Below, piece after piece: positions 12,439-60,626 of a stretch of DNA of 64,000 bases (within the stretch, counting starts at the first letter, position 1; every line of letters starts with the position of its first letter). Below the pieces are notes generated by a model. It had not been told where the DNA came from. It made no database searches and saw nothing but the letters and a program-made list of their open reading frames with translations. The translations under genes and the position numbers were made by a program. The stretch is from a virus. The stretch lies in IMG/VR virus record IMGVR_UViG_3300009130_001466, positions 1 to 64,000 of that record; one strand, written 5' to 3'.

Positions 12439-12832
12439 ATGATTTTACTTCTTTTATGTCTGAATTTGTTATTTGATTAATTTTGTTTTTGATATTAAAA
12501 CGTTCGTCGTTTGTGTAATAAACATCTCTTGCAAGTCGAATAAATACTGCACCAAAATCTTTGTTTCGTTCACATTCTCTGATTTGATCTTCAATCTTCC
12601 ATAACCCTAGATTGATTTGATACAGATCCGCTTTTAAAGCGCAAAGATCTGCTCTGGAAAAGTTAAAACCAAGCGCTGGATTAATCAAATCTGCAAATTT
12701 TTTATTTAATTCAACTCTTTCATTTTTAACTTCTTGTAGCTTCTCTACATCTTTAATCATTGACGATTTGATTTCAAGGATTGTTAGTTTATCAAGAAGC
12801 TCACCTACTGATATAGGGATATTAATTTTCAT
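12422..12832 (-). CDS. DUF6165-like helical protein associated with glycosyltransferases
   Basis: IPISVGELLDKLTILEIK...LWKIEDQIR...LARDVYYTNDERF.IK..IN. Confidence 0.8.
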   Translation of the reverse strand: MKINIPISVGELLDKLTILEIKSSMIKDVEKLQEVKNERVELNKKFADLINPALGFNFSRADLCALKADLYQINLGLWKIEDQIRECERNKDFGAVFIRLARDVYYTNDERFNIKNKINQITNSDIKEVKSYESYS

Positions 12833-28097: not shown

Positions 28098-28450
28098 TTT
28101 AATAAATCTTTTGTATTCTTTGGTTTATTATCACTAGAAACGTAATCTTTTCCAGTCTTTTCTCCTAAAATAATAGTGTCATACTTAGACAGGTCAACCT
28201 TAAAGTTAAAGTTTCTCCATTTTTTGTCCATAGTTTCCTTCAGTTCTTTAGACACAAGGTAAGCGAGACTGTCATACTTCTTGGGGAAGGTAACAATTTC
28301 TAAAAATTCCAAAGAATATCTAGACTCAAGATCCTTCAGGAGTTTCATTTCCCTAGCCCAAAAGAATCGCTTTTGGGCTTTGGGAACATCAATAAGCCTT
28401 CCTATGGTAAGTTGTCGCCTTTTATGTGGCGTTAATTTCTTTGAAGTCAT
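28094..28450 (-). CDS. Hypothetical protein
   Basis: 118 aa ORF overlapping both neighbours. Confidence 0.7.
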   Translation of the reverse strand: MTSKKLTPHKRRQLTIGRLIDVPKAQKRFFWAREMKLLKDLESRYSLEFLEIVTFPKKYDSLAYLVSKELKETMDKKWRNFNFKVDLSKYDTIILGEKTGKDYVSSDNKPKNTKDLLK

Positions 28451-29471
28451 GTTCGCACATTCTGCACACTAATGATTCAAAGTCAACCTTTTTCTTCCAG
28501 CCTAATTCTTCTTCTGCCTCAGAGGGGTCCCCAAGGAGCAAATCGACCTCTGCGCGGCGATAAAAACCAGGATTCACTTTCATTAGAGTGATATCTACGG
28601 GGACTTCCCCTATTAATTTATAAACTTCATCAACACCCTCGCCAGACCAATAACCTTGGATGCCAGCATTATCAAAAGCAAGTTCGACAAACTCTCTTAC
28701 AGCGTGAGCTTCTCCAGAGGCTAGTAGATAATCTTTGGGACTGTCTTGATTCAACATTAGCCAAACAGCTTCTACAAAATCTTCTGCGTGGCTCCAGTCT
28801 CTCTTGGCGTCAACATTGCCAAGTTCAAGTGGCTTAAAATGTCTATCGCCGACCTGCAAGGCTTTTGCGATTCGTGCTACATTTTTTGTTATTTTTCGTG
28901 TTACAAATTCTTCGCCACGACGTTCTGATTCATGATTAAATAAGTAGCCTTGAAGAGCGTACAAATCATAAGAGTCGCGCCACACCTTTACAATCTGTCT
29001 CGCGGCAACCTTAGACGCTCCATAAGGGCTTCTTGGTCTTGCTGGGTGCTTGAGGTCTTGTGGGGTGTAAGCTACATCACCAAACTCTTCAGATGATCCT
29101 GCATTATAGTAGCGGCAGCTTGGGCAAATCTTACGAATCGCTTCAAGTTGGCGCATGACGCCAAGAGCATTTGTGTCGAAATGATTTACGGGCATGTGCC
29201 AACTATTGCCTACAAAAGAGTTTGCGGCAAAATTAATAAAATAATCTGGCTTAATATTTTGAACTGTAGTGAAAATACTGTGTTCATCGGTTAAGTCCAT
29301 TTCAATAAGCTCAAAACGATCTGAATCAATGTGTTCGATGTTTTTGTGATTTGGCACGCTGAGTCTACGAATAGCTCCGTAAATCTTGTGATCTGTATTC
29401 GCCAAAAGGTAATCGACCATATATGAGCCGACTTGACCCGTTACTCCTGTTACTATTACTTTTTTAATCAT
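28422..29471 (-). CDS. gmd: GDP-mannose 4,6-dehydratase
   Basis: VTGVTGQVGSY, AGSSEEFG, PRSPYGASK, FNHESERRGEEFVTRKIT, LGNVDAKRDWSHA. Confidence 0.95.
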   Translation of the reverse strand: MIKKVIVTGVTGQVGSYMVDYLLANTDHKIYGAIRRLSVPNHKNIEHIDSDRFELIEMDLTDEHSIFTTVQNIKPDYFINFAANSFVGNSWHMPVNHFDTNALGVMRQLEAIRKICPSCRYYNAGSSEEFGDVAYTPQDLKHPARPRSPYGASKVAARQIVKVWRDSYDLYALQGYLFNHESERRGEEFVTRKITKNVARIAKALQVGDRHFKPLELGNVDAKRDWSHAEDFVEAVWLMLNQDSPKDYLLASGEAHAVREFVELAFDNAGIQGYWSGEGVDEVYKLIGEVPVDITLMKVNPGFYRRAEVDLLLGDPSEAEEELGWKKKVDFESLVCRMCEHDFKEINAT

Positions 29472-38784: not shown

Positions 38785-40428
38785 TTAACCAGAGCAGGAT
38801 TGGCATTCTAATATATTTCTGCTTAATTCTTGGGCTGGATTTGCGCTTCTTTGATAATAAAGTGTTTTAACTCCAAGTTCCCAGGCTTCGATTAGTAATT
38901 CACTAACCTGTTTAGGTTTTACTTCTGGTGGAATCATTACATTTAATGATTGAGCTTGGTCAATGTATTTTTGGCGACTGGCTGCTTGAATAATAATATC
39001 TTTTTGAGATATTTCTCCGAATGTTTTAAATACAGCTTTTTCTTCGTTAGTTAAAAATTCTAAATGTTGTACTGATCCACCTTTAATCAAGATTGATTTC
39101 CAAATGGCGCTTGTATTTTTTTTATGTTTTTCTAATAACTGAGTTAAGTAAGGATTTTTGTAAGTAAAATTCCCTTTTGCGAGTTTTTTTACAAAATAAT
39201 TACTATTAAGAGGCTCAATAGAAGGAGAAACTTGACCTAAAATAAATGAAGATGAAGTTGTTGGAGCGACCGCAAGTGTTGTAACATTACGGCGGCCATA
39301 ACCTTTTAAGAGTTCTGGTTCACCCAGTAGCTCGGCCAATTGTTGTGTAGCTGAGTCTGCTCTTTCTCGAATAATTGACCAAATCTTATTGTTTTCTATT
39401 TGGGCCTGCAAACCCTCAAAGCCGATGTTTTTAGATTGTAGGTATGAGTGCCAGCCAAGCGCGCCCATTCCAAGGGCTCTTTGGTTTTTTGCAAACTTAT
39501 GAGGAGCTTCCATAAATTTGATGTTTTTTGTTTTTTGAACAAATTCTTCATTAACTGCATCAAGAAAATAAACTAATGTTTGAACTGCGTCAGTTTTTTC
39601 TATTTTGTCCCATTCTACTAAATTCAAAGACGACAAGACACAAACAAAAGATTCTTCCTCATTTGATTGTAGAGTAATTTCACTGCAAAGATTTGAAGAA
39701 TTTATTTTGTAATTTTTATCCTTATAAACTTGTGGTGCTTCGTTGTTTACGGTATCGCTGTACATAATATATGGATACCCAGTTTCAAAACGTTTTTTAA
39801 TTATTTTGCCCCAAATTTTACGTTTTTCTTTGTCTCCTTCAATTAACGATTTCATCCATTCATCGGTAATTGTTATACCAATACTCATATTTTGAATAGG
39901 GTGACCGTCCTCGCGAATCTGAAGAAATTCTTCAATGTCTGAATGCTCAACTGGTAAGTAGGCCGCAAAGCTCCCGCGACGAGCAGATCCTTGAGAAACT
40001 ACGTCAGCGACCTTGTCATAAAGTTCCATAAAGTGAACGGGGCCAGAAGACTGGCCACCAACACTAATATCAGCTCCTCTCGATCGAAGATCTCCAAAAA
40101 ACCCAGATGTTCCTCCTCCCATTTTAGACATGATTCCAACCTCTGCATTTTTTTCAAGGATTGACTCCATTGTGTCAGATACATGGGAATTAAAACAGCT
40201 AACTGGTAGGCCACGACTGTTTCCAAAATTAGTCCACACTGGAGTAGAAAGCGAATAAAAACCTTCGCTCATATATTTTTGGAATTTTTCAGAAAAGCCC
40301 TTAATGCCTAATATTTTTTCTGCATTATTGGCGATTTCAGCGATTCTATCTTCCGCATTTTGACCTTCTTTTAAGTAGCCTCTTGACAAAAAGAGGCGAG
40401 AATCTTCGTTTAACCATTTATAACTCAT
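38785..40428 (-). CDS. nrdA: Ribonucleotide reductase class I alpha subunit, no ATP cone
   Basis: LPVSCF, GGGTS, SNLCSE, APTTSSS, KTLYY, C-terminal CQSC. Confidence 0.95.
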   Translation of the reverse strand: MSYKWLNEDSRLFLSRGYLKEGQNAEDRIAEIANNAEKILGIKGFSEKFQKYMSEGFYSLSTPVWTNFGNSRGLPVSCFNSHVSDTMESILEKNAEVGIMSKMGGGTSGFFGDLRSRGADISVGGQSSGPVHFMELYDKVADVVSQGSARRGSFAAYLPVEHSDIEEFLQIREDGHPIQNMSIGITITDEWMKSLIEGDKEKRKIWGKIIKKRFETGYPYIMYSDTVNNEAPQVYKDKNYKINSSNLCSEITLQSNEEESFVCVLSSLNLVEWDKIEKTDAVQTLVYFLDAVNEEFVQKTKNIKFMEAPHKFAKNQRALGMGALGWHSYLQSKNIGFEGLQAQIENNKIWSIIRERADSATQQLAELLGEPELLKGYGRRNVTTLAVAPTTSSSFILGQVSPSIEPLNSNYFVKKLAKGNFTYKNPYLTQLLEKHKKNTSAIWKSILIKGGSVQHLEFLTNEEKAVFKTFGEISQKDIIIQAASRQKYIDQAQSLNVMIPPEVKPKQVSELLIEAWELGVKTLYYQRSANPAQELSRNILECQSCSG

Positions 40429-45743: not shown

Positions 45744-48700
45744 TTATACAGCGGAGGTATTTATTTCTCTCCAATTTGATCCATTGTGAATATACATATT
45801 GTCGCCACTATACATAATCTGGCCACCTACGCCTGGGGTACTTGCGCCAGTCCATAAAGGCACATTCATATAAGTTCCTTGGTCAAAATCTAAGAAAAGG
45901 GTGTCTTCTCCCTTGGATTGTGTTTGGGTTATTTTACTGTCTTTTATTACGGACCCAGCTATATGCTGAGAATCTATATTATCTCCAAAAACAAAAGTGT
46001 TTTGCCCGCTTGATTCTATATCTTCTCCAAAGAAAGTAGATTTGTTTGAATTTTGTACATTTATTCGATCTCCGTATATAAAAACATTACTAGAACTCTT
46101 AACATTATTATTAAAGCCCTTAATTGATAAATTTGAAACAAAACCGCCAACGCCCGACAGTGTATTTCCGTACCCTAAAATATCACAATGCCTAAAGTCA
46201 ACAAAAGTACTAGTGTCACCAAATTTAACAAAAGTAATATCTTCCCCAAGAATCCTTGAATGCTCTACTCGCACCCTTCCAGTTAAATTAATATTGGAGC
46301 CCAAAATATCTGAGTAATCTAAATCATGATCTATGTTAATATTATTCCCTTGAATTTTGGAATCGGCTGCATTGCTTATATCGCTTTGGATTAAATTAAA
46401 AACAGAACAGCGATTAATGCCACTCAACTCTGAATCGTTAACATAGTTTAAATTAGACGACAATATGGATCTTGCATTAGAATTTATTAAATTATTTGCG
46501 GAAGAACTCGATAATCCAAGAACATTACAGTTACCAAGATTCGATATTGATGAATCGGTTACGCTAGATAAGTTTGAAGCGTAAATATTTTTGATTTCTG
46601 AGTAGAATGCACCAGAAACCGTAGATTCGTCGTGGTTGAAACAAAAAACGTCTAGAGAAGCCCTGAAAATATTATCGGATGAATTCTGACTACTTCGAGT
46701 AAAATTATGACCACCAATAACGAACAAATTAGAACAAAAATCAAGTTTATTCTTTTTCCCAAATATATAATTTGAATCTTCTCGTGTATTCTGAGTGTTG
46801 AATGCCGCCCCAGTAATACTATTTTGCTCGCCTATAATAAGTGAGTAGACTGAAGGTTCTTCACCTACAATTTCGTTTTCGTCTCCAAAAATTAAATTAT
46901 TACGACCAGACAAAGTATTTTCAGCACCATTTATAATCGTACTTTTCCGACCATAAATAGTATTATTTAGCCCATTTAAAATTGTAGAGTAGGTGTTGTT
47001 AAGGACGTCTGTTGCATCTAACTCCGATACTTCAGTTAATATTTTATTTCTGTTTCCATTTAAAATGGTTGAATTGGCGCTTTTGATTCTTTCCCCGCTT
47101 TGTGATATTTCGTTTCCGATACCATTGAAGATTGAAGAATAATGCGCCGCTTTAACTAAAGATCCAAGACTGTTGGAAATATTACAAAATATTGGATAAT
47201 TATCCGAATCTTGAAAGCTGCTAACATTAGGGCCCCTATAGCCGCTTTCTATGCTTGAATTCATAGAATTGCTTATTGATAGAAGTTGTCCATGTGTGCT
47301 GCACCTAACTGAAGAAAAAATGGAAGAGAGACTTTCCCAAGTCTGCCTTCTGTCATTAAAATCACGAAGTAAATCGCTTTCTTCCATACCGCTTAATTCT
47401 GGTATTACAAAATCGTGTCCAAAATTAAAAGTATTTCTAAAACCGAATTCGCCATACAGGGAATGGGTCACTGCATGTATATCATTTCTTTTCCCATTTA
47501 ATATAAAACCGCCTATTCCGTCTACACTATTCTCTTCTCCTCCGAATATATGAGAATGTTTGTTTTGCACAGCTTCCAAATTTGAGCCGTTAGCGAAGAC
47601 GCCCTCTATAACGAATCTCTCACCAGCCTTGTTTGAACCTATTACATTGTTTTCTCCATTAATTATCGTGTTGTAATTTTTATAGTCTCTGTTGAAATAG
47701 TAGAATCCTTTATCTAAATTTTCTGAAGACGACCCAGTTAAAAAACTCAAATTAATTGTATTACCTGTGCCGCCAAATATGTAAGAATTGTGCCCAGAAG
47801 CTTTATTGTTTATGCCCGCTACTATTGAGTTCGCTCCAGCTAACTCATTTCCAGATCCATTTAAAATAGTAGAAAAATCAGACTGAACTTTATTTTCGAT
47901 TCCATTCAGAATAGACGCATAAACAGGGGCATCAAAAACCTTTTGTTCAAACCAATAACCTGAAATTCTCTCAAAACCATCTGTGGCCGACCAAGTATAC
48001 CAAGGTTGAGGATGAATATCGCTTTCATAAATTTCGCTATACAGCAGGTCTTGAAATGGAAACTTAGTAAACTGAGCGGCAAAACCCACTTCTCTGATAA
48101 TTCCAGTGTCTGCGGTTGTAAAACTAATTGTCACGTCGGTATTTGTATCGATCGTAGAACCATCTGGAGTTAAAATAACTCCATTATCTGACTCAATAAT
48201 AGAATTTCCAGTTCCACCAGCAATAAATGAATCACTAGAGTCAATAATATTATTACCTCGGCCAGCCGTTATAGAACATCTTTCAGAATCTTCCACAACG
48301 TTTATTCTGCCAGCAGAAATGCAAGAATCTAAAGAATCTTTGACATCATTGTTTCTTCCCGCAAGAATTGCTACACCAGTTCCAGTTAAATTATTATCCT
48401 GTCCACCAAAAAGGGTAGCATAAAGACCTGATGCGGTGTTATTTTGCCCGCCAACTAAAATAGTCTCGTCACCAAATACATCATTATTTGAACCCCCAAC
48501 TAATACGCTTCTGTCTCCACTTATTGAATTATTATTGCCACCTACAAGGGAAGACTCAGTTCCAATAATATAATTAGATCTACCTCCCACTAAAGAGGAA
48601 TGAGTTGAGTTTTGTATTTTGTTTGTTTTCCCTCCGAGTAAAACAGAAGAAGTGGAACCAGTTATAGTATTATCATCTCCTACTCCAACTAAAGATCCAG

Positions 48701-51011
48701 TTGATGACGCTATTACATTCGTCGAGCCAGCGGCAATGGAAGATTGGTTAGAGTTTTGTAGTAAATTTCCAGTTCCCGCTCCAACCGAGGAGTCTTGAGA
48801 ATTTATTAAAGTATTACTTGATCCCGCTGTAACCGAGGAGTCTTGAGAATTTGTAAACGTATTATCTTTGCCCGCACCAACGTGGGACCTTTGAGAATTT
48901 TGCATAAAATTCCCAGTTCCCGCTCCGATTGAAGAATCGTCCGAAAGTTTTATGGAGTTTTCTCTACCAGCGACGACCGTGGAAGCCACGCCGCTCACCT
49001 TATTATTTTCGCCAGCGAAAAGCGTGACAAATTTTCCAGAAGCGGTATTGGACTCGCCGCCCATCAAAACGATTCCGTCGCCCACTAACTGATTTCCGCT
49101 ACCCCCGACAAGAACGCTCTTATCTCCGTGAAGGGTATTATTGCTACCTCCGAGCAGAGAAGAGGAAGAGCCAGATACTACATTTTCTATCCCGCCGAGC
49201 AAGGAAGAGTAGCTTCCAGTTCTCAATTCATTATCTCTGCCGCCTAAGATAGAAGCGGAAGAAGTGTTTTCTCCGACCAGATTGTTTCTGCCGCCGAGTA
49301 TCGAAGAGTTGTTTCCGATAGCTTGATTTAAGAAACCCCCTCCAAGAATGGAGTCCTCTCCGCTCACAATATTTTGAAGCCCCGCCAATATCGCTGCGTT
49401 TTCGACATAAACCTTGTTGCGGTTTCCTCCACCGATGAAAGAAGAATTTCCGCTTATGTAATTTTCGTCGCCAGCGGCAATGGAAGATCGGTTAGAGTTT
49501 TGAATGTAGTTTCCAGTTCCAGCGGCAATCGAAGAATCGCTTGAGCCGCTAATTTTATTAAAACCGCCCCCTACAATTGCAGAATTAGCAGAACCACTCA
49601 GTTTATTTTGATTGCCAGCCCCCAGGAAAGATTCATTTGAACTTATAATTCTATTTCCAGTTCCAGCAGAACTTGAAGAATTATTAGACCCTGATAAAAC
49701 ATTTTCTTCGCCAGCTAAAATAGAAGACCCAGTTGAATCAGTCAAAGAATGGCTATCACCAGCACCTATCCACGAACTACTAGAATTTAAAACATTATTT
49801 CCAGAGCCAGCTCCTATGAAAGAACTGGGAGAGTTAGAGAATATATTTTCAGACCCAGCACCTATGAAAGAATTATCCGACGTATTTAAATGATTTTGGG
49901 TTCCAGCCCCCAGTAAACTATCACTTGAACCAGAAATTATATTAGATAGCCCCGCACCTAAAGTTGATCTTGGTGAATTTTTTACTAAATTCAAATTACC
50001 ACCGACAAGAATAGCATTATCCGAAACTAAATTGTTTCCACTTCCTCCAACTATAACACTTTTTTGCCCAGAAATGTTGTTGTTTGATCCACCTACAAGA
50101 GAACTTAAAGATCCACTTATTTCGTTGTTTTCTCCGCCAAGAAGAGAAGAGTGGGTTGAATTTTTTACAATATTTTCCTTGCCTCCAACTATTGTAGAAT
50201 AATTTCCCGTTTTTATTTCATTATTATCTCCGCCTAAAATAGCAGATTTCTGACCGTCTATAGAATTTATATGACCACCAGCAATTACAGAACCTTCGCC
50301 AGTAATTGTGTTATTTGTACCCGCTATTATCCCACCTAAATTAGAATTTACTTGATTCCCATTGCCTCCAGCAATTGCAGATCGATCAGAATTTACTATA
50401 TTATTTTGTCCAGCACCTATGAAAGATTTATTGCCAGAAATTTGGTTTTGGCTGCCAGCCGATATAGAGGATTGATTACCTATCAAATCATTTCCAAGTC
50501 CACCATTTACAGTAGATGAATTTCCAGTAATATGATTTCCAGCACCAGCGCCGATAAAAGAAAAGTTCCCACTTAGAGAGTTATGAGTGCCAGCGGAGAT
50601 AAACGAGTCATCCCCTATTAAAGAATTATATGTGCCAACACCAATGGCGGAATAATCCCCACTTAGAAAATTATTATTGCCAGCTAATATAACAGAATAA
50701 TTCCCACTTAAAGTATTTACGTTTCCAGCAAATATAACAGATCCTTGCGAATTTTGAGCCATTTGAAGCTGACCCTCCCCCAAACCAGAAAGCGAATTAT
50801 TTTTATAAACAAGCTCTAAACCTTGATAAGTTGGTATAGAATTGAAATTCTTAACTCCAGATATGTTCTGATCGCCAGTTTTTAATACTATTTTGTTTCC
50901 ATCCCAATCTATATCAGATCCATCTCCATTTGTGACTATCGCAGTGTTTGGATCTGAATTCAGTATATAGATATAACTAGAATCTATTCTTTTTCCGTAA
51001 AGGTCTGCCAT
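45744..51011 (-). CDS. Giant beta-solenoid tail fibre/adhesin
   Basis: Dozens of 14-16 aa SxIxGGxxNxI repeats; N-terminal TGDQNISGVKNF; start MADLYGK at 51011 after GTGTAA-N8 (51020-51025). Confidence 0.85.
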   Translation of the reverse strand: MADLYGKRIDSSYIYILNSDPNTAIVTNGDGSDIDWDGNKIVLKTGDQNISGVKNFNSIPTYQGLELVYKNNSLSGLGEGQLQMAQNSQGSVIFAGNVNTLSGNYSVILAGNNNFLSGDYSAIGVGTYNSLIGDDSFISAGTHNSLSGNFSFIGAGAGNHITGNSSTVNGGLGNDLIGNQSSISAGSQNQISGNKSFIGAGQNNIVNSDRSAIAGGNGNQVNSNLGGIIAGTNNTITGEGSVIAGGHINSIDGQKSAILGGDNNEIKTGNYSTIVGGKENIVKNSTHSSLLGGENNEISGSLSSLVGGSNNNISGQKSVIVGGSGNNLVSDNAILVGGNLNLVKNSPRSTLGAGLSNIISGSSDSLLGAGTQNHLNTSDNSFIGAGSENIFSNSPSSFIGAGSGNNVLNSSSSWIGAGDSHSLTDSTGSSILAGEENVLSGSNNSSSSAGTGNRIISSNESFLGAGNQNKLSGSANSAIVGGGFNKISGSSDSSIAAGTGNYIQNSNRSSIAAGDENYISGNSSFIGGGNRNKVYVENAAILAGLQNIVSGEDSILGGGFLNQAIGNNSSILGGRNNLVGENTSSASILGGRDNELRTGSYSSLLGGIENVVSGSSSSLLGGSNNTLHGDKSVLVGGSGNQLVGDGIVLMGGESNTASGKFVTLFAGENNKVSGVASTVVAGRENSIKLSDDSSIGAGTGNFMQNSQRSHVGAGKDNTFTNSQDSSVTAGSSNTLINSQDSSVGAGTGNLLQNSNQSSIAAGSTNVIASSTGSLVGVGDDNTITGSTSSVLLGGKTNKIQNSTHSSLVGGRSNYIIGTESSLVGGNNNSISGDRSVLVGGSNNDVFGDETILVGGQNNTASGLYATLFGGQDNNLTGTGVAILAGRNNDVKDSLDSCISAGRINVVEDSERCSITAGRGNNIIDSSDSFIAGGTGNSIIESDNGVILTPDGSTIDTNTDVTISFTTADTGIIREVGFAAQFTKFPFQDLLYSEIYESDIHPQPWYTWSATDGFERISGYWFEQKVFDAPVYASILNGIENKVQSDFSTILNGSGNELAGANSIVAGINNKASGHNSYIFGGTGNTINLSFLTGSSSENLDKGFYYFNRDYKNYNTIINGENNVIGSNKAGERFVIEGVFANGSNLEAVQNKHSHIFGGEENSVDGIGGFILNGKRNDIHAVTHSLYGEFGFRNTFNFGHDFVIPELSGMEESDLLRDFNDRRQTWESLSSIFSSVRCSTHGQLLSISNSMNSSIESGYRGPNVSSFQDSDNYPIFCNISNSLGSLVKAAHYSSIFNGIGNEISQSGERIKSANSTILNGNRNKILTEVSELDATDVLNNTYSTILNGLNNTIYGRKSTIINGAENTLSGRNNLIFGDENEIVGEEPSVYSLIIGEQNSITGAAFNTQNTREDSNYIFGKKNKLDFCSNLFVIGGHNFTRSSQNSSDNIFRASLDVFCFNHDESTVSGAFYSEIKNIYASNLSSVTDSSISNLGNCNVLGLSSSSANNLINSNARSILSSNLNYVNDSELSGINRCSVFNLIQSDISNAADSKIQGNNINIDHDLDYSDILGSNINLTGRVRVEHSRILGEDITFVKFGDTSTFVDFRHCDILGYGNTLSGVGGFVSNLSIKGFNNNVKSSSNVFIYGDRINVQNSNKSTFFGEDIESSGQNTFVFGDNIDSQHIAGSVIKDSKITQTQSKGEDTLFLDFDQGTYMNVPLWTGASTPGVGGQIMYSGDNMYIHNGSNWREINTSAV

Positions 51012-51019
51012 AATCTTAT

Positions 51020-52144
51020 TTACACAAAACTGTTCCAAATAAAGTCATTATGACTGAAAATAGTTCCGTTGTTCTTATTCCAAAGGTAAACAGAGGCGCC
51101 AGTTAATATATTTATATTATTTGCGCCAAAAATTAAATTTGCATCTTCTGATAATTCTGATGAAATAGAGTTACTGAAGTTTTTGGACTGTAAACTTGCT
51201 CCAGAAATATTGACCATGAAGTTTTTGCCATTTATCTTGCCACCACTTATGCTTATATAATAAGTTTCTGAATTTTTTAAAAAATTTAATAAAGAATGAT
51301 CGGTTTCTATGTCTGAAACTTTATTTTTTAAAGAAATTTTTCCTAAAAACGGAGGAGTCGCCACCCTTCCCATTGGAAAATATTTATCTATAGAATTTAT
51401 TCTTTTTCTGTTAAAATCGAGATTTATGTCGAAAGATTGAATATTATCTGGCTTAATCAAGAAAGAATCTTCTGTTCCTATCCCGCTTATTTTTACATAA
51501 GTATTGTATCCAGCAGTCCACTCTCCCATAAAGTTGGACTCAATTAATTCATCGTATATGCCAGTAAACACAAAATTACCAACTGGTTGTTGATCTCCAG
51601 TTAAATTAACAGATGGAGACTTGCCACTGCTTAATAAATACTGCCCATCGCTACCACTATATTCTTGCGCAATTATATTACTTCCGATGTATGAATAGTC
51701 ACTGGTTAAAATACCACCAACTTTTTGATTTATTTTTACAGAGTCAAGAAAACAATTTCCTATTGAAAGCGAACTCTCATATTGACTAAGAACAGTTCTT
51801 TCTTCGTCTCTACCAACAATAGAATAAAAGTTTTTCCCCCGATTTAAATCTTCACGAAGTTGCCCTCCAGTAAAAACATCTTCAAACAATGTTTCAAAAT
51901 TTTCAAGTATAGATAAGTTTACATTGACATCTGGGGCTTGATTTGAATAAATAAAATTTTTCTTTTTTGATCCCACTGAACCCTTACTACTAACTAAATT
52001 AGATCCAAAATCAAAATCAAAACTTTGCACCCCTGGCAAGAAGAACATACCGCTTCCGTTATTCATTTCTTGCTGATGAAACTCATCCTCGCTATAAAAC
52101 AAGCAAACATCCGCGTATCTATTTACAAATCTAGACGCACTCAT
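51020..52144 (-). CDS. Tail-tube-fold baseplate protein (paralog A)
   Basis: GVQSFDFDF, PSVNLTGDQ, IQSFDINLDFNRKRI; paralog of the neighbouring gene. Confidence 0.6.
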   Translation of the reverse strand: MSASRFVNRYADVCLFYSEDEFHQQEMNNGSGMFFLPGVQSFDFDFGSNLVSSKGSVGSKKKNFIYSNQAPDVNVNLSILENFETLFEDVFTGGQLREDLNRGKNFYSIVGRDEERTVLSQYESSLSIGNCFLDSVKINQKVGGILTSDYSYIGSNIIAQEYSGSDGQYLLSSGKSPSVNLTGDQQPVGNFVFTGIYDELIESNFMGEWTAGYNTYVKISGIGTEDSFLIKPDNIQSFDINLDFNRKRINSIDKYFPMGRVATPPFLGKISLKNKVSDIETDHSLLNFLKNSETYYISISGGKINGKNFMVNISGASLQSKNFSNSISSELSEDANLIFGANNINILTGASVYLWNKNNGTIFSHNDFIWNSFV

Positions 52145-53181
52145 TAAACCCTCCCAAAATCAAAAATATTAAAATTAAAAGAAAAAGAAGAGTTTAGATT
52201 TTGACCCAAAGAAATTGACTGGGAGTTAGAAGATAATCTTGCTCCAGATATCTGAAACTCTTGAGTCTCTGAATTTCCATTTTCAAAACTTAAATTCACT
52301 ACATAAGAATCGTTTGTCTCTAGAAAATCTTTTAGATTAGACTGGGACCCGCTTAAGTTAAATTCTGAAGATATAAAAGATGCAGAAAGTGACCCCTCCG
52401 TAGTATGTATGAACTTTCTTTTTATTGGGTATTTCTTTCCGATTGAAAATATTTTTTTTCTATTAAATGGCATAGATAAGGAAAAATCTTGAATCATGTC
52501 AGCTTTAATTAAAAATATATTTTCTGAGTTAACTCCAGATATCGACAAATTGGTTTTATAAGCTGGGAAAATATCATCTTGAAGATTTGTCTGAGCATTA
52601 AGTAGGCCTTGAACATTCGGAAGGGTTGTTGTAATGATTTGTGATTGATCTCCAGTTAAATTAACAGCTGGGTTATTTATCTCATTTGAGACTATGGTTT
52701 GAGCATTGATATTACTACAAGAATAAGTGTATTTTGATGTTAAAAACTGATTAATAGATTGCGTTAAAGTGAAATTTTCAAGGAAAGCATTGCCAAAATT
52801 TATGGTTTCATCTGCATCAGAAAAGTCTGAGTAATATTTTTTTTTACCTATCAGAAAATAAAAACTAGCATCTTGATCTAAGTCTTCTAAAACGGCATTG
52901 CCGCTAAAAAATCCAGAGAACATATCTTCAAATGTCTCAAAAATGTTAACATCTAAATTTACATCAACGTCATATCTATTTACGCTTTTTGAATAGAATT
53001 TATCACCAAGCGTTAGTATATCTTCGGTTTTTGTATTAAAATCAAATGAAAAATCCTGCACCAACGGGACTAGTTTTATAGATGATGCGTCATTAGACCC
53101 GCTTAAAAATGATCCAGCGCCACCCTTCAACAAACAAACATTTTCATATGTTATTGTTGGTCTATTTATATTAGTTGTCAT
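52144..53181 (-). CDS. Tail-tube-fold baseplate protein (paralog B)
   Basis: LVQDFSFDF, PAVNLTGDQ, IQDFSLSMPFNRKKI; start MTTNIN at 53181. Confidence 0.6.
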   Translation of the reverse strand: MTTNINRPTITYENVCLLKGGAGSFLSGSNDASSIKLVPLVQDFSFDFNTKTEDILTLGDKFYSKSVNRYDVDVNLDVNIFETFEDMFSGFFSGNAVLEDLDQDASFYFLIGKKKYYSDFSDADETINFGNAFLENFTLTQSINQFLTSKYTYSCSNINAQTIVSNEINNPAVNLTGDQSQIITTTLPNVQGLLNAQTNLQDDIFPAYKTNLSISGVNSENIFLIKADMIQDFSLSMPFNRKKIFSIGKKYPIKRKFIHTTEGSLSASFISSEFNLSGSQSNLKDFLETNDSYVVNLSFENGNSETQEFQISGARLSSNSQSISLGQNLNSSFSFNFNIFDFGRV

Positions 53182-54214
53182 AATAATAATTATCAAACAT
53201 TGCGTCGGATTTAAATTTAATTACTTCATCTAAATTTAATGTAATGTCGTTACAATCTTTATAAACAAATTTATGTTGCAGAGAATTACAAACAAAAAAC
53301 TTTCTTTGGTTGTATAATTGAGGCAAGTTTAATTCAAAAGGTTTGTAATCTTCGTGTTTTTCTATAAAATGAATTATTGATCTAGTTTCTTTATTGCTCC
53401 TGTTTTTTAGTGTTAGGGTTAGCCCTTTTATTAATCCAGCATTTGCATCTGTTTTCGCAAAAGAAGAAAAAGAATCTTTTAATTTTACAATTTCAGATTT
53501 TTTGTCTGTAGAAATGGAAACGTTATCGTCCAAATCATAAAAAAATGATCTAGTCCATTTTGAGGCGGTTCCAGTTGGACTATTTGAAGTATTTGATGTA
53601 TGATCGCCGCTACAATAATAAAATCTTTCAATCCTATTGGCCGCTGTATCGAAATTGCTATGCCCTCCAGTATTGTATTGTGGAAAATAAATAACATCAA
53701 ATTTTTCATAATCACTTGAAGACGACCATCCAGTTTGAAAATTTCCAGTATTTAAATACGAAGATGTTGCCCAGTTCAAAAAAGAAGAATATCCATTTTT
53801 TGAAACAACCAAATCTATATCAAAAAGTCCGTCATGAAACCTAAAGTCGTAATTTTCTACATAAAGTTCATTTATTCTTTGATACACATCTCCAGTCGGG
53901 AAAGCTAATTCAACATTATTTATATCAAGTTGATTAAAATCAAAAAACCCCAAACTATTTCTACTAACGCCCTCCAAAAAACTCAAAAAAGATTTAGCCT
54001 CCTCTTCTGTTTTGTTAGAGAATTTTAAATTAAATTTTATTTCTGTCCCGTTTAAACCTTTAGAGAATTTTTTATAATGGTTGTCTGCTGTATAAAAATG
54101 CACATTTTTATTTTCAAAAGACACGGTGGAGCCATATTCTGGGACAAACGAGTTAGCCTCGATAGTGCCCGTTACGTTATTGTCTCTATCGTAAGTTGCT
54201 AATACTTCGCTCAT
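53171..54214 (-). CDS. Distal tail protein (duplicated gpM-like halves)
   Basis: Directly after the tape measure gene; KGLNG..LKFSNKTEEEAKSFLSFLE and LTLKNRSNKETRSIIHFIE. Confidence 0.7.
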   Translation of the reverse strand: MSEVLATYDRDNNVTGTIEANSFVPEYGSTVSFENKNVHFYTADNHYKKFSKGLNGTEIKFNLKFSNKTEEEAKSFLSFLEGVSRNSLGFFDFNQLDINNVELAFPTGDVYQRINELYVENYDFRFHDGLFDIDLVVSKNGYSSFLNWATSSYLNTGNFQTGWSSSSDYEKFDVIYFPQYNTGGHSNFDTAANRIERFYYCSGDHTSNTSNSPTGTASKWTRSFFYDLDDNVSISTDKKSEIVKLKDSFSSFAKTDANAGLIKGLTLTLKNRSNKETRSIIHFIEKHEDYKPFELNLPQLYNQRKFFVCNSLQHKFVYKDCNDITLNLDEVIKFKSDAMFDNYYYDN

Positions 54215-54216
54215 TT

Positions 54217-57200
54217 TTATGACTTATATAAATAGTTTAGAGTTCCCCCACTTCTAGACTCTTCTTGTATCACTGTCGTGACTGCCGATCTGATTCTAGA
54301 AGCAAACTCTCTTTGGTTCTCTGAAGAGCCCTGGCCGCCTTCTTGACTAACTTTGCCATCTTGTATATTGAAAGTAAAATCTGAGTTATTTGTTATTTCG
54401 CCTCCGCCAAGTGCATTACTTCCAGCCTCTGAAGCAACAGGAGAAACTGCTCCTCCATTTTGAAATCCTTGCATTGGGAGCATACCTTTATTTAGGCTAG
54501 ACAGAAAGTCGGTTCCATATTTATCTACCGCAGATTTCTTAACTACAAATTCTCCAGGGGTTAGCATAGCTGGTACTGTATCTGTTCCTCTACCAACTGA
54601 TCCGCCAGCATTAAAGAAACTGAATAAACTACCCAAGCCACCACTCAAACCACCGAGAAGGCTGCTAAATATTCCACCAATTCCGCTCCCTATTCCACCT
54701 AGTCCGCCGAGAAGGCTACTAAATATTCCGCCGCCACCTGCGCCACCACCAAATAAACCTACGAGACTGTCTTTTAGTCCACCAAATATTCCACCAAGTT
54801 TATCTTTTAAACCTCCGAATAAATCGCCAAATCCGCTTTTTATTTTACTGAAAAAGCCCTCCTGCCCTTCTCCTTCTTTTCCAGTTATACCCTCTAAAGC
54901 TTTTTCTGCTCCGCTAGTGGCTCCTCCACTTATGGCATTAGCTACATCTTGAACAAATAGTGGATTTGTTGGGCTGCTTCCTAGAGCGCCGCCACCTTTT
55001 TTACCTCCACCAAATAAGTCACCAAAAAACCCGCCAACTTTTGAGAAGAGTCCTCCGCCGCTAGCAGCTGCACCGCTAGCAGCTGCACCGCTAGCAGCTG
55101 CGCCGCCAGAAGCTGCGCCGCCAGCAGCGCCAGAAGCTCCCCCTCCGCCGAAAAGACCACCAATAGATGAAAATATATTTTTTTGACCACCGCCCCCAGC
55201 GCCGCCAAAAACTCCAGTTGGGCCTCCACTAAATAAAGTGTTTGTAAATTGATCTGCGGCTTGTTGTAGAAACGCATCCCTAATGAACCCTAAGAAATTT
55301 CTTCCAGCATCGGATAAAGCCTCATCTAAATCTTTGGCCCCGCTTACAGCATCTTTCATAGCGGAACCCAAATTATCACTAAATTGAAGTGGTATATTTT
55401 CACCAAGCTCATCTTTAAAAAAATCTATATCGTCTTTAACTTGTCCCAATCCTTTGCTAAATCCATCGGCAAATCCTTGCGGTTTATTAAGGTTATTTAT
55501 TTCTTGTTGTAATTTTATTTCTTCTAGCTTGTCGTCCAATACTCTTTGCTGAATTTCTGCCTTAGCTACAGCAAGGTCAAAATCGGTTTTGGCTTTTTTA
55601 GATAGCTCTATACCAGCCTCGGCAAGCCCCTCTTCAATTGAAAGTAAGCTAGCCCCTGCCTTAACCTGGCCCTCTATAAACTCTTTCTGCTTTTCAGAAA
55701 AAACACTGGCATCTGTGATTGATTTTACGTATTCTTCTGTGATTTTGAATTCTTCTTTAGCTCTTTCTATGAGAAATTCCCCCATAGCTATCTCATTTTC
55801 TAGACCCACTTTCCTTACTGTTGTTACAGCTTTAGCTAAATCAAGTTCTTTGCCTCTTATCGCGGATAAAGCTCCTTCTTGAAATATAGTCGCTCCTATT
55901 TCTCCAGGCTTCGTAGGCTCTAACTGCTTTGTTGTGTCAAATCCACCAGCCGCAAATCTTCCTTCGCCTATGCTTTCTTTAAAGCTTTTTTTTGCTGCAG
56001 ATCCAATTACCCCTTTCTCTCCAAAACCAGATGCAGCTATTAATGCTGCATCGGCGGCTTTTTTGGCGGCGGCATCAATCTGCTCAATAGCTTTGATCAT
56101 GTTTTCCGCAAACAAAACTGCATTAAACTCCTTCTCGACTGTAGTTCTTGTTGTCCCACGCCGTGGATTGAAAAATTCCTTCTCAACATCTGTGCTGCTC
56201 GCATCAATGATCTTTTGCAACTCGGTTGTGCTCCCAACTTTTGCCAAAGACGCACTCAATGTTTCTTTATCTTTTACTCCTCCAAAAAATCCTTTATTAA
56301 TTCCTTTTAATCCTTTTACTTGTTTTTCAAGTATATCACCTATATCTGCATCCGCTTCAACATTTAATTTTTTTGCAAGTTCAGCCTTTTCACTTGCTCT
56401 TTTTATCTCCGCAACGAAAGAAGACTTCAAAGCGGCGGAAGCTTCTATTGATCCAGCTGATAACTCTCCCAGATCAATATTTTTAAGTGATTCGTTTAGT
56501 TTTTCGAACCCTGTTTTTGTTTTTGTTAATTCTAGAACAAGCGGAGCCACCACTGCTCCCACAGCTACAGCAGTACCAATTCCAGGCAAAGCTCTACCAA
56601 CTCCAGCTATGCCTCTACCCAGGCCACCCCTAGCTCCCCTCAGTTTGCCCTCTGAACCCCTCATTATTCCACCTGTTCTCGGACTCCGAAAGGTAGCTAA
56701 CTCTGTTCCAAAACTAGACAACTTAGCCCCAACATTTTCAAGCGGCCCTTTCAATAAGCTTAATCCACTTAATAATGATGCGGCTAAACTCACCTCACTG
56801 ATAAACTTCCCAAGACCACTTTCGGCTCCACTAAAAGCAGAGCTTAAGAAAAATAAAGCAGTAGACGCTCCTAGTGCAGCATTCGAAAATTTATCTACAG
56901 ACTCTGTAGCTCCTGCCGTTCCTCTTTTTGCAAAATTAGGTATCCTGCCAGTTGGCTCATCTCTTGTATTAGTGACGGCAAGACCTTGTGGATTTTGAGA
57001 ATTGCGAAGCTTCCCGCTTTGATTTATTCTTATTTGATTGATTGGAAGGCCAGCAGCTTGCTCTCTTGCAACTGCTTCATCCAAAGCTCCACGAGCAAAA
57101 TTTGGGATATAACCTCCAGCACTTCTTCTGTTAAATTCTGCTGTAACGGCTTTTCTACTAGGTCCAGCAACTCTGCTTTTTTGTAGTTCCCCTAAACCAG

Positions 57201-59637
57201 TCTTGGAAACACCCTTGCCTCCAGCGCCAAATTTTTCCATCTTATTGGCCATACTGTTGTATATACGAGTATTACCAGAGATTTTAGCCTCTATAAATCT
57301 AGCCTGGTCAGAGATTCCAGGATATAATTTTGCTATATCGTTTCTGGCCGCACTACCAACAAAATCAAATGTAGCTGTTTGAGATAAATCATATTGCGGG
57401 CTTTTTAATATGGAGCTAATAGCGGCTTCATAAATTACACCAGCCAAAGACGATACAGATCCTCGGTTTCCCAGTTCGTTTATTTTCGTTGCGGCTGGTC
57501 TTCCTCCACTTATTTTTTTAGCTTCTAGATTAGCTAATCCTACACCAAATTTTCCGACAGATTTTACATAATCCTTCGTTTCTCTGCCTTTTATTTGCGC
57601 ATCATTATAGCCCAAAATTGGAAATTGATAACTTTTGCCAGTTTTTGATTTTCCTACAGCGAATTTGCCCAAATTTTTATCTGGAGTAATTAAAGCGAAT
57701 CTACGGTCTTGTATTGGAGCTGCTTGCCTCTTTGCAAAATTAGGAATAAATCCACTAGCCGCATTTATCTTTTTCGCCCCACTTGGAAGGCCCATCGACC
57801 TAACCATGTCTTGGTTAAATATAGCATCTCCGCCTCCAGCATAATTAGGAACAAAATATTCACTAGTGTTTGCGACCATTGTGCCACGTTTGCCGCCACC
57901 AAAAGCAAAATTAGGAATTGAAACAACTTTGGAGCTAGACGGGGCGCCACCAACACCACGAGAAACGTCACGAGCTTCGGCAGCAACATAACCATCAGAT
58001 GCTCTTCCTTTAGGGGTAACCCCTTTTGTCCCGCCACGCAGTCCAGCACCAAAAAGTCCAGGCGTTACAGTTGCAGCGGCTTTTTGAACCCTAGCGAGCG
58101 CGGCGGCTTGTTGGTTATAAATTTTTAGAAGTAATTGTTCTTGAGCTACCTTATTTCCTTCTAGGGCTAAAATCTCTCTTTGGATACTTTCATTTTGCAG
58201 CAGTGTCTGAAGGACGGACTGTTGAAGCGATTTTTGAGCCTCCGCAGCCTTGTTAATACCAAGCAGGCTTTTTAAGGAACTAGCTCCAAACTTTGCCAAG
58301 TCTACAAATAATTTTACAAATATAGCACTAATTAAAGCTAACCCTGGGCCAGTTAAAACGCCACCTATCCCCTTAACTATGCTTTGTGCGAATTTTGAAC
58401 CTATTGAATCTCCCTGCAATAAATCAGTAATCCCACTAACTACAGAAGAAAACACCTTTAAAATATCTTTCGCTGCATCAGTAAAACCCAATTCTCCAAC
58501 AACAGAAGAGAGTTTTTGCGCCCCAACTGTCAAATTATTTATCAATGCTTCTAGCGTATCATTTAATTGGGCGTTTTTTCTATCTAAGGCGCCAGCAGCT
58601 CCAGCGGAAACTTGAAGAGATTTTGCAAACTGACTTTGGCTAGAATTTAAATCTTCGACCAAACTAATTAAAATATCACGCTGGCGAACGCCAGCAACTT
58701 TTTGGATAATCTCTCCAGCCTCAACACTTTTTAAACCAAGCTTGTTGAGCTCTACTGCGAGTTCCTGAAAAAGAGGTATAGCGCTTCTTACATTACCTTC
58801 CACGTCTACAACATTTATTCCCAAGTCTTCAAGCGCGGCTAATGTATCAGTTCTGCCCAATCTAGCAAAAATGGTTTTAAAAGCATTACCAATAACAGCG
58901 CCGCCACGCTGAGTTCTTTCTTGCACGGTTGTAATGACACCTAAAAGCTCATCAAAAGATACGCCAGCTACACGAGCCGATGCGGAAGCTCGTTCAAGAC
59001 CGTTAATCAAATCCTCCGTAGACACAGCGAACTTTGTATCAACTTCGGCTAATTTATCCGCTATTTGAGCTACATTTAAACCAGCGCCTTCAAAACCCTT
59101 TATCGCTGCAGTCAAACCAGCTACAGCTTGTTGAGAATCAATACCAGCGACGCGAACTAATTTCAAAGAAGTTTCAACACGAGAAAGCGACTCTTCTACG
59201 CTTAAACCCTGACGAGCTAACTCTAAAGCGCCATCGGCCACCTGATCAAAAGATGTCGCTGTTTTTTGAGCTACAGCGAAAATACCATTACCAAATTGTT
59301 CTAATTCTTTTTGGGTCCCCCCTAAAATAGTATTAATTTTTGCAAAAGTAGCTTCTACTCTAATAGTGTTTTCTACTAGCGCCCCAAATGCTTGAGAAAG
59401 TTTATTAATAACAGCAACCGAAGCACCAAAAGCTAAAACACGAGCATTAGAAGCTTCTAATGATTTTTGGAATTCAGTGGCTTGCCCTGTTATTTTTCCA
59501 AGCGGGCGAGATAGCTTTTCAATGGATCGTGCCCCGCTTCCAAAATCAACTCCCTTAGCTTGAGTCTGTATTCTAGCTAAAGCCGCCTCAACCTTTCTTG
59601 TATTTGGTTCTAAATTTACTCCTACATTTACCGCCAT
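54217..59637 (-). CDS. Tail tape measure protein
   Basis: 1806 aa Ala/Gly-rich helical; ALELARQGL, DKLAEVD..AVS, RGGAVIGNAFKTIF, TDTVPAMLTPGEFVV; GTGTAA-N8-ATG at 59646-59651. Confidence 0.93.
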   Translation of the reverse strand: MAVNVGVNLEPNTRKVEAALARIQTQAKGVDFGSGARSIEKLSRPLGKITGQATEFQKSLEASNARVLAFGASVAVINKLSQAFGALVENTIRVEATFAKINTILGGTQKELEQFGNGIFAVAQKTATSFDQVADGALELARQGLSVEESLSRVETSLKLVRVAGIDSQQAVAGLTAAIKGFEGAGLNVAQIADKLAEVDTKFAVSTEDLINGLERASASARVAGVSFDELLGVITTVQERTQRGGAVIGNAFKTIFARLGRTDTLAALEDLGINVVDVEGNVRSAIPLFQELAVELNKLGLKSVEAGEIIQKVAGVRQRDILISLVEDLNSSQSQFAKSLQVSAGAAGALDRKNAQLNDTLEALINNLTVGAQKLSSVVGELGFTDAAKDILKVFSSVVSGITDLLQGDSIGSKFAQSIVKGIGGVLTGPGLALISAIFVKLFVDLAKFGASSLKSLLGINKAAEAQKSLQQSVLQTLLQNESIQREILALEGNKVAQEQLLLKIYNQQAAALARVQKAAATVTPGLFGAGLRGGTKGVTPKGRASDGYVAAEARDVSRGVGGAPSSSKVVSIPNFAFGGGKRGTMVANTSEYFVPNYAGGGDAIFNQDMVRSMGLPSGAKKINAASGFIPNFAKRQAAPIQDRRFALITPDKNLGKFAVGKSKTGKSYQFPILGYNDAQIKGRETKDYVKSVGKFGVGLANLEAKKISGGRPAATKINELGNRGSVSSLAGVIYEAAISSILKSPQYDLSQTATFDFVGSAARNDIAKLYPGISDQARFIEAKISGNTRIYNSMANKMEKFGAGGKGVSKTGLGELQKSRVAGPSRKAVTAEFNRRSAGGYIPNFARGALDEAVAREQAAGLPINQIRINQSGKLRNSQNPQGLAVTNTRDEPTGRIPNFAKRGTAGATESVDKFSNAALGASTALFFLSSAFSGAESGLGKFISEVSLAASLLSGLSLLKGPLENVGAKLSSFGTELATFRSPRTGGIMRGSEGKLRGARGGLGRGIAGVGRALPGIGTAVAVGAVVAPLVLELTKTKTGFEKLNESLKNIDLGELSAGSIEASAALKSSFVAEIKRASEKAELAKKLNVEADADIGDILEKQVKGLKGINKGFFGGVKDKETLSASLAKVGSTTELQKIIDASSTDVEKEFFNPRRGTTRTTVEKEFNAVLFAENMIKAIEQIDAAAKKAADAALIAASGFGEKGVIGSAAKKSFKESIGEGRFAAGGFDTTKQLEPTKPGEIGATIFQEGALSAIRGKELDLAKAVTTVRKVGLENEIAMGEFLIERAKEEFKITEEYVKSITDASVFSEKQKEFIEGQVKAGASLLSIEEGLAEAGIELSKKAKTDFDLAVAKAEIQQRVLDDKLEEIKLQQEINNLNKPQGFADGFSKGLGQVKDDIDFFKDELGENIPLQFSDNLGSAMKDAVSGAKDLDEALSDAGRNFLGFIRDAFLQQAADQFTNTLFSGGPTGVFGGAGGGGQKNIFSSIGGLFGGGGASGAAGGAASGGAAASGAAASGAAASGGGLFSKVGGFFGDLFGGGKKGGGALGSSPTNPLFVQDVANAISGGATSGAEKALEGITGKEGEGQEGFFSKIKSGFGDLFGGLKDKLGGIFGGLKDSLVGLFGGGAGGGGIFSSLLGGLGGIGSGIGGIFSSLLGGLSGGLGSLFSFFNAGGSVGRGTDTVPAMLTPGEFVVKKSAVDKYGTDFLSSLNKGMLPMQGFQNGGAVSPVASEAGSNALGGGEITNNSDFTFNIQDGKVSQEGGQGSSENQREFASRIRSAVTTVIQEESRSGGTLNYLYKS
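55058..55117. repeat. 15-bp coding tandem repeat (AAASG)
   Basis: ccgctagcagctgc(a/g) three times plus a degenerate copy. Confidence 0.85.
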
Positions 59638-59651
59638 ACAGAATATTACAC

Positions 59652-60626
59652 TTAAACTCCGTGCAACTTCATCATTTCTTGCATATTCAAAGATCCCCCT
59701 CTTTTCTTAACTTCTTCGCTTAAATTCACAGCCCGCTCATTGTCTGATTTTAAGCTTTCGAGATCCTCCTCATTGGCTCCAAAATAAGCTGAACCACCCT
59801 CCCCGTGCTGGGATTTTGTTTGAGTTCTTTCTGTTTTTTGGTTTTGGTGGAAATTTACCAATAATTCAGGGTCTTTAGCTACGTTTTCAGGTATTTCCTT
59901 GCTTGAGTTTTTAAAAATGTTTAAAAAATACCTCCCATAAGAAATCATCTTTAATTGGTATGCCGTTAAATTGACCAAGGGTTTTCCAAATAACCCCAAA
60001 ACATCTTCAGAAAATGGCAAATACATAGAAAAATAATCGCTCAATACTGCAACCGATATATTTTTATCATCAAATTTTTGAAAAAAATCTTTTTGCAGAC
60101 TGTATATTTCCATTTCTTTGTCTTTTTCATTTATATACAAGCTGTCAAATATTGGATCTTTAAAAGCCTTATCAAAAAATACAATTTTTTCTATGGTAGT
60201 TTTTTGAATTTGATTATTTACAAATTTTTCGCAAGTTAAACCCATTAAAGATTCCTTGTCTGAATTTATTTTGAACAACTTTTTATTCAACCTCTCAATT
60301 GTTTTTTGTAGATTTTTTATCTTTGAAGGCAATATTTGAGCTTTCATTGAATTTGAGTTCAATTCAATTTCATTTTTGTATCGCTTTATTTCTTCTTCTT
60401 CTTCGTGCCCCCACATCCCCTGAGAGTACAGTTCATCCATTGCCTCTTTTTCGGTCATAAGGCCTTTAGATTTTGCTTCCTTTAGAAAAATGGAAGATTT
60501 AGAAAGTATTTCTCTCTGCTCTTCCTGAAGCAGGTGTTTGAAGTACAGAATCCCTAAATCGCTATCTACAATAGAGACACCCTGCAGTACTTCAGATACT
60601 ATTTGTAAATTTTGATCATTGTTCAT
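59652..60626 (-). CDS. Putative tail assembly chaperone (gpT position)
   Basis: Helical protein immediately upstream of the tape measure gene. Confidence 0.55.
   Translation of the reverse strand: MNNDQNLQIVSEVLQGVSIVDSDLGILYFKHLLQEEQREILSKSSIFLKEAKSKGLMTEKEAMDELYSQGMWGHEEEEEIKRYKNEIELNSNSMKAQILPSKIKNLQKTIERLNKKLFKINSDKESLMGLTCEKFVNNQIQKTTIEKIVFFDKAFKDPIFDSLYINEKDKEMEIYSLQKDFFQKFDDKNISVAVLSDYFSMYLPFSEDVLGLFGKPLVNLTAYQLKMISYGRYFLNIFKNSSKEIPENVAKDPELLVNFHQNQKTERTQTKSQHGEGGSAYFGANEEDLESLKSDNERAVNLSEEVKKRGGSLNMQEMMKLHGV

Follow-up and report, generated by a model that had tools for sequence, protein, structure and literature searches.

The tape measure protein (TMP) encoded by gene P0001, in a 64,000-nucleotide stretch of viral DNA (the window, positions 1 to 64,000 of IMG/VR record IMGVR_UViG_3300009130_001466), carries in its middle a conserved frame built on a short repeated peptide, [IV]PN[FY]A. 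The frame consists of an N-flank with three copies of the motif and a C-flank with two. The segment that it encloses, here called the cargo domain or cassette, differs between relatives, and sequence comparison gives good support for the exchange of whole cargo domains, with breaks at the motifs, among phages that are otherwise nearly identical. In this TMP the frame holds a single cargo domain of about 210 residues. We hypothesise that it is nuclease-like in character and would act at genome entry, a reading to which we give about an even chance. The phage is uncultured, long-tailed and marine, with a tape measure protein of the TP901 type.

The evidence for exchange comes from pairwise alignments of the TMP with close relatives. 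In one of these (P0099) the N-terminal part is 99% identical to that of the window's TMP and two later regions are 98% identical each, while the cassette is only 26% identical; in a second (P0033) the N-terminal part is 97% identical, the later regions 95% and 98%, and the cassette 34%. The relatives P0004-P0006 have the reverse pattern, with a cassette 94% identical, an N-terminal part 84–88% identical and a C-terminus 64–66% identical. Along the alignments, identity holds as far as GFIPNFA, collapses, and returns exactly at GYIPNFA. Point divergence cannot give 34% identity inside a protein that is 97% identical outside, and the clear conclusion is that whole cassettes have been exchanged. 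The flanks are approximately 80 and 60 residues long and 85–96% identical among these phages, the N-flank even where the cassette is at about 30%. This would provide ample homology for ordinary homologous recombination within the highly conserved flanks, which is how we suppose the exchange to occur.

The motif is found five times in the TMP, at residues 574, 596, 631, 844 and 899 (window positions 57904-57918, 57838-57852, 57733-57747, 57094-57108 and 56929-56943), and the five heptapeptides of IPNFA type quoted in an earlier note on this DNA are indeed all present at the positions it gave. We estimate from amino-acid frequencies that a protein of this size would contain about 0.002 copies by chance, so that the repeat is real. 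Translation of the window in all six frames reveals no other copy of [IV]PN[FY]A, and a relaxed form of the pattern is found in no real open reading frame (ORF) of the genome in the virus record (112.8 kb, 83% complete) beyond the TMP. Conservation along the TMP, judged from 67 sequences, is highest in the flanks of the motifs, where dozens of columns are invariant, and lowest in the long gap between copies 3 and 4. The spacing of the copies (22, 35, about 210–310 for the long gap, and about 55 residues) is kept by most of the 120 best homologues, which include a subgroup lacking copy 1.

The motif is conserved as a peptide signal, to judge from its codon usage. There are 143 distinct codings of G[YF][IV]PNFA, in which every synonymous codon is used, and it follows that selection acts on the peptide and not on a DNA site. 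The earlier note had taken the motifs to be cleavage or recombination boundaries of interchangeable cassettes. As borders of such cassettes they are supported by the swaps in P0099 and P0033; as a recombination site in the DNA they are ruled out, because the synonymous sites vary freely. A full-text literature search for the motif found nothing relevant. The motif probably serves to dock each module, to restore the register of the chain in the TMP multimer, or to mark processing sites.

The cargo domain lies between copies 3 and 4, and contains in succession the sequences GVIYE (ending in E737), TATFDF (with D758) and FIEAKIS (with E783 and K785). Inter-motif segments from 69 viral loci were aligned together with the window copy (alignment A2, n=70). 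The mean column identity is 15%, and against this background the E, D and (D/E)xK positions are kept (Table 1). The earlier note had made its proposal depend on conservation of these residues, and in this respect it is upheld. Two glycines are also conserved, G733 in 69 of the 70 sequences and G726 in 63. The domain is very basic, with a predicted pI of 10.2; the family median is 9.9, and the value exceeds 9 in 67 of the 70 members.

With A2 as input, AlphaFold generates a confident model of the domain (pLDDT 86, pTM 0.80), with the order bbb-aa-b-a-b-aaa. Three strands are followed by two long helices, the second of which (model residues 95-114) carries E737. D758 immediately precedes a short strand (129-130), after which come a helix, the strand bearing E783-x-K785, and a further helix with K799. 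The segment of about 200 residues that the earlier note described between copies 3 and 4, with its series of E, D and ExK, is therefore present and is predicted to be of alpha/beta type. The hallmark of PD-(D/E)XK enzymes is a conserved E...D...(D/E)xK in which the D and the (D/E)xK lie on or beside strands; according to the model this order and this placement in the secondary structure are both present in the cargo domain, and they are conserved across the family. The cassette also contains a fit to the Walker A pattern G-x4-GK[ST], GKFAVGKS (residues 657-664, window 57646-57669), which is considered a look-alike, since it falls in a predicted beta hairpin and in a region that is not conserved in A2; genuine P-loop modules are confined to relatives.

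Table 1. Features of the TMP gene discussed in the text (window coordinates; residue counts refer to alignment A2).
Feature	Position	Strand	Evidence
Tape measure protein gene P0001, 1806 aa	54217..59637	-	ORF and translation; PF10145 and tape-measure PHROG matches
PF10145 PhageMin_Tail region, aa 122-301	58735..59274	-	hmmscan E 1.5e-28
Hydrophobic segment 1, aa 423-453, upstream of module	58279..58371	-	Kyte-Doolittle 19-residue mean 2.0
Conserved N-flank, aa 556-635, motif copies 1-3 (SIPNFAF, FVPNYAG, GFIPNFAK)	57733..57972	-	Invariant columns
Cargo cassette, aa 636-843, basic alpha/beta domain, 208 aa	57109..57732	-	Alignment A2, AlphaFold, pI
E737, in helix GVIYEAAISSIL	57427..57429	-	E 67/70, D 3/70
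D758, in TATFDFVG	57364..57366	-	D 70/70; just before short predicted strand
E783-A-K785, strand FIEAKIS	57283..57291	-	783: E 45/70, D 25/70; K785 70/70; model strand 151-154
K799, in helix SMANKMEKF	57241..57243	-	K 65/70, Q 5/70
Conserved C-flank, aa 844-903, copy 4 (GYIPNFAR) at start, copy 5 (GRIPNFAK) at end	56929..57108	-	
Hydrophobic segment 2, aa 1013-1038, downstream of module	56524..56601	-	Kyte-Doolittle mean 2.05

On the basis of these residues, the cargo is predicted to be a metal-dependent nuclease or another nucleic-acid-handling enzyme. A protein language-model search with the core of the domain (domain residues 88-180) points in the same direction, with scores of 0.77–0.82 that are to be read as leads only. 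The families named among the matches listed were Hjc, PDDEXK_14, Mrr_cat, Tox-REase-7, PDDEXK_11, AHJR-like and HinfI, all of which we take to belong to the PD-(D/E)XK clan, and according to the tool the ten best family-bearing matches all share a family or clan.

Several observations weigh against a nuclease delivered in this way. The cargo domain matches no Pfam family at E <=10, and searches of Pfam, PHROG, NCBIfam, PADLOC and the PDB by sequence and profile, using the cassette and the 370-residue module, gave nothing usable. When all 70 members were compared with Pfam, NCBIfam and PADLOC at E <=1, no nuclease family was shared among the matches listed; the nuclease-type matches among them were to single members and at chance level (Ntox15, E 0.18; DrmC, E 0.043). 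The model itself departs from the usual topology. In canonical PD-(D/E)XK enzymes a hairpin connects the strand of the D to that of the (D/E)xK, whereas here the two are separated by a helix and the spacer from D to (D/E)xK is 25 residues. A few relatives carry a cassette of a different and more canonical-looking type (A3, YEN..VDGY..LLEVK; L066:2729-3211, L070:2729-3211 and L071:2729-3256), with a helix-borne E, VDGY and LLEVK at hairpin-length spacing, but hhalign gives a probability of 0.1% that it is linked to the main family, and such a link was rejected. Searches of the PDB and other profiles with A3 gave no match. Finally, one relative (P0140) has a filler of 38 residues in place of the cassette, which implies that the domain is not needed for building the tail.

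Structure comparison was similarly unproductive. The domain-only model found no match in the PDB (Foldseek, two VIA modes) or in BFVD, and a model of the 370-residue module (pLDDT 66, with flanks of low confidence) matched only a helical hairpin. A PDB profile search with the cargo family gave nothing relevant, and an Hjc model had no match in the genome at E <=10. No whole stand-alone homologue of 92-595 residues was found by single-sequence or 70-sequence-profile searches, which returned only fragment-like matches; the cargo-domain family has so far been found only inside tape measure proteins. The restriction-endonuclease fold proposed in the earlier note thus survives as a conserved set of residues on a confidently predicted alpha/beta domain, and not as a match of fold or profile to any nuclease. 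The scaffold may be a very divergent, non-canonical derivative of PD-(D/E)XK, or the site may have arisen by convergence on a new scaffold. We have moderate confidence that the conserved residues form an active site of nuclease type, carried by a scaffold that is new or has diverged very far.

The same results could be explained if the cargo were an enzyme or ligand-binding domain of new fold with no kinship to nucleases, acting for example on the peptidoglycan or lipid of the envelope. We consider this unlikely. A confident model that matches no nuclease fold or profile is what it would predict; a pair of E and D is typical of lysozyme-type enzymes too; and the enzymatic domains known from tape measure proteins are muralytic. 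In addition, the module of motifs and cassette lies between two hydrophobic segments of the TMP (residues 423-453 and 1013-1038), which from their sequence may span the membrane, and it could therefore face the periplasm. However, muralytic families fare no better than nucleases: no lysozyme, transglycosylase, M23 or NlpC/P60 domain was found by Pfam at E <=10, in the scan of 70 members or among the fold matches listed. The invariant, strand-borne (D/E)xK and the high basicity of the domain suit a nucleic-acid enzyme better, and the frequent partner of the domain in relatives is a P-loop NTPase. The language-model neighbours of the core, all from PD-(D/E)XK families, also count against an envelope enzyme, albeit weakly.

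The module is widespread. A word-indexed search with residues 560-930 identified 1076 TMPs of 993-3161 residues among 8000 scored candidates, and when 1.84 billion representatives were searched exhaustively with HMMER, 797 clusters at 50% identity matched, some of them from the Tara and GOS ocean samples. At 90% identity the family comprises more than 1000 clusters, and a scan of viral contigs located the module at 329 loci at least. By contrast, the module had no tblastn match among 50,697 phage records, a set that thus offers no cultured relative. Inserts in the relatives range from 205 to about 310 residues, and a TMP may contain from one to at least five cassettes, of differing kinds and in variable order, including P-loop modules. 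By motif count, a single cassette is present in 196 of 235 long TMPs, two cassettes in 19, three in eight and four or more in five.

The contents of these cassettes are less diverse than their number might suggest. A recount with hidden Markov models of 289 inter-motif segments placed the E/D/K domain in 244, a P-loop module with Walker A in 17 and the A3 type in two (E..VDGY..LLEVK), leaving 32 in no class. In the less biased set of 131 representative TMPs, 127 (97%) carry at least one E/D/K cassette. The earlier note had envisaged a repertoire of polymorphic effectors, but polymorphic toxins do not keep to one domain family as these representatives do, and this part of its proposal is not supported. 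The content between the repeats does vary, but most of it belongs to one family. We conclude that the E/D/K family is, on sequence criteria, a near-constant, fast-diverging and swappable component, to which extra modules are optionally added.

The P-loop module is 157-159 residues long, has a true Walker A motif (GPAGSGKST) and is fenced by the motif, as in relatives L064, L075, L076, L080, L081 and L063; its Pfam matches are all below threshold. In the 17 representative TMPs that carry it, it adjoins an E/D/K cassette or is fused with one in every case but one, a pairing that suggests an NTP-dependent activity.

How the cargo might be used can be pictured from the behaviour of tape measure proteins at infection. 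Tape measure proteins leave the tail first and are at the inner membrane while the DNA enters, so that the cargo would act at genome entry, ahead of all phage gene expression. Given that the domain is swapped exactly at the peptide in related phages, it is probable that the tail brings a preformed protein into the host. The fast divergence and the swapping suggest a conflict with host factors, or specificity for them. During injection TMPs are found at the inner membrane and are bound there by the host defence nuclease SNIPE, and escape mutations map to the TMP (10.1101/2025.11.03.685801). Given this combination of location and recognition, payload and evasion are both plausible roles.

It is therefore necessary to consider that the cassette is mainly a surface for host interaction or for evasion of defences, with no catalysis, whose exchange would alter host range or allow escape; its partner would be a protein of the inner membrane through which the DNA enters, or else it would be what immune sensors of the host detect in the TMP. 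The extremely fast divergence of the cassette and its swapping between near-identical phages fit this well, as do the contacts of TMPs with inner-membrane proteins, the SNIPE findings just cited and the existence of the cassette-less relative P0140. Under diversifying pressure, however, four charged residues and two glycines would not be expected to stay fixed over 70 sequences at 15% identity, nor does such pressure sit easily with the same domain family in 127 of 131 representatives. On balance, we regard a purely non-catalytic surface as improbable.

Another account, in line with the earlier note, makes the TMP a polyprotein in which G(Y/F)IPNFA forms protease sites, the cassettes being freed as effectors in the virion or in the host. 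TMPs of several phages undergo processing. In those relatives with several cassettes that were examined, the same peptide closes every cassette, and the constraint is on the peptide and not on the DNA. Autoproteolytic release of domains has moreover been proposed for polyvalent proteins (PMC5512222). On the other hand, neither the TMP nor those of its neighbours that were scanned showed a protease domain, the motif resembles no known cleavage motif and drew a blank in the literature search, and the copies in the N-flank, 22 and 35 residues apart, enclose no cargo and would better fit a structural role. Cleavage at the motifs thus seems to us a doubtful explanation, on a par with the non-catalytic surface. 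A broader version, in which the TMP of this large marine group of long-tailed phages is an injected modular polyprotein and G(Y/F)IPNFA a docking or processing tag by which interchangeable enzymes are placed or released at DNA entry, is also unlikely, if a little less so. Were it true, the enzymes would include P-loop NTPases and a nuclease-like fold of a new kind, besides several further modules, and tails of the non-contractile or TP901 type would possess a route of protein delivery marked by an address tag of its own. It is highly improbable that the insert is a passive structural spacer, there only to lengthen or thicken the tape measure: TMP length is established to set tail length, and the insert does vary from 205 to about 310 residues, but a spacer would explain neither the invariant charged residues and confident globular alpha/beta model nor the cassette-less relative and the P-loop companions.

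The reading that we favour, of one exchangeable nuclease-like cargo in a conserved motif frame, would add to the functions of a protein known as a ruler, a channel or a muralytic helper. A large and environmentally abundant family that combines a fixed peptide with exchangeable enzyme-like modules suggests a changeable protein payload in phage tails. Given that the cargo family has no detectable relatives outside TMPs and no fold match, and has kept nuclease-type residues, we regard it as a candidate new enzyme scaffold that would act in the first seconds of infection. The swaps at exact boundaries constitute a natural experiment, in that near-identical phages differ only in their cassettes, and could reveal the role of the payload, which might for instance concern host range or defences whose sensing or action takes place where the DNA is injected.

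The identification of the TMP rests on its N-terminal part. The PF10145 profile matches with 100.5 bits against a cut-off of 33.2, and the first 530 residues contain a run of PHROG matches; of the 19 families matched, 16 bear a tape-measure annotation. The gene directly downstream (53171-54214) has a weak match to a minor-tail PHROG (E 1.2e-06), and six further neighbours scanned against PHROG had no match. A few genes downstream in the same minus-strand block is an ORF of 1764 residues (45744-51038, minus strand), with no PHROG match. On the opposite strand, about 45 kb from this block, a protein of 1818 residues (3782-9238, plus strand) matches Phage-tail_3 and Laminin_G_3. The G+C content is 0.41–0.42 across the TMP gene (window 54001-60000), compared to 0.31–0.35 around it, with a strong negative GC skew; this fits the composition of the TMP, which is rich in Gly and Ala.

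The C-terminal half of the TMP (window 54217-56400, residues about 1080-1806) is likewise a mosaic. Compared to the window's TMP, P0033 is 38–58% identical at residues 1201-1360 and 1481-1680, and 95–100% identical in other parts. This half contains a long Gly-rich stretch with repeated units of the type GG(L/I)F(G/S), and close to the C-terminus is the sequence DTVPAMLTPGEFVV, which matches a motif present twice in the consensus of relatives.

Elsewhere in the window, the phage encodes an AAA+ protein (16442-17944), Pol III alpha (17944-20514), a DnaB-like helicase (24554-26071), a RecA-like protein (26985-28097) and a ribonucleotide reductase (38785-40428). There is also a GDP-mannose 4,6-dehydratase (28422-29471) and a weak glycosyltransferase match (12822-14510). 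The suggestion in the earlier note that the phage DNA is protected by glycosylation while the nuclease attacks that of the host finds no support, as no ThyA-like base hydroxymethylase (PF00303) was matched in the 83%-complete genome. The hint of a host is too weak to name one: seven contigs from metagenome bins match, three of them labelled Flavobacteriaceae, Flavobacterium or Flavobacteriales.

The cargo domain may be compared with known systems at the level of the domain and of the whole protein. It resembles PD-(D/E)XK nucleases such as Hjc, Mrr and Tox-REase in its E on a helix, its D after hydrophobic residues, its strand of hydrophobic residues followed by (D/E)-x-K, and a basic residue in the next helix. 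It differs in the lack of a profile or fold match, in the 25-residue spacer with a predicted helix in place of the hairpin, and in the three strands and two long helices that are predicted to precede the motif-bearing core.

In polymorphic toxins a short motif marks the swap point (VENN in CdiA, PxxxxDPxGL in Rhs), and there too a conserved peptide lies exactly at the border between the delivery part and a variable part replaced by recombination. However, the cargo of these toxins is C-terminal, has many unrelated folds and is accompanied by immunity genes, whereas here it is internal, flanked on both sides and mostly of one family.

The nearest concept is that of the polyvalent proteins of phages and conjugative elements described by Iyer et al. 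2017, large proteins with shuffled enzyme-like domains for which entry into the host alongside the DNA and a part in host–parasite conflict are proposed (PMC5512222). Tape measure proteins are mentioned zero times in that paper. The present system differs in having a single cargo in the window's TMP, one fixed fencing peptide, and one cargo family in 97% of representatives. A Pfam scan of the TMP and six multi-cassette relatives found no hallmark domain of polyvalent proteins (for example the MPTase peptidase). In the TMP and five of the relatives it found tape-measure domains only (PF10145, with sub-threshold TMP_3 in two), and in the sixth (P0176) only a sub-threshold glycosyltransferase-like match.

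The nearest established case is that of tape measure proteins with embedded functional domains of muralytic kind. The Tmp of mycobacteriophage TM4 reportedly has a peptidoglycan-hydrolase motif, and Pb2 of phage T5 is said to have a C-terminal peptidase. As is proposed for the protein described here, a ruler carries a functional domain, is first out of the tail, and acts at the envelope during entry. The inserts in those proteins are muralytic and recognisable by sequence; here, by contrast, the insert matches no muralytic family, has a nuclease-like set of residues, is fenced by a repeated peptide, is exchanged as a unit, and in relatives is present as several units.

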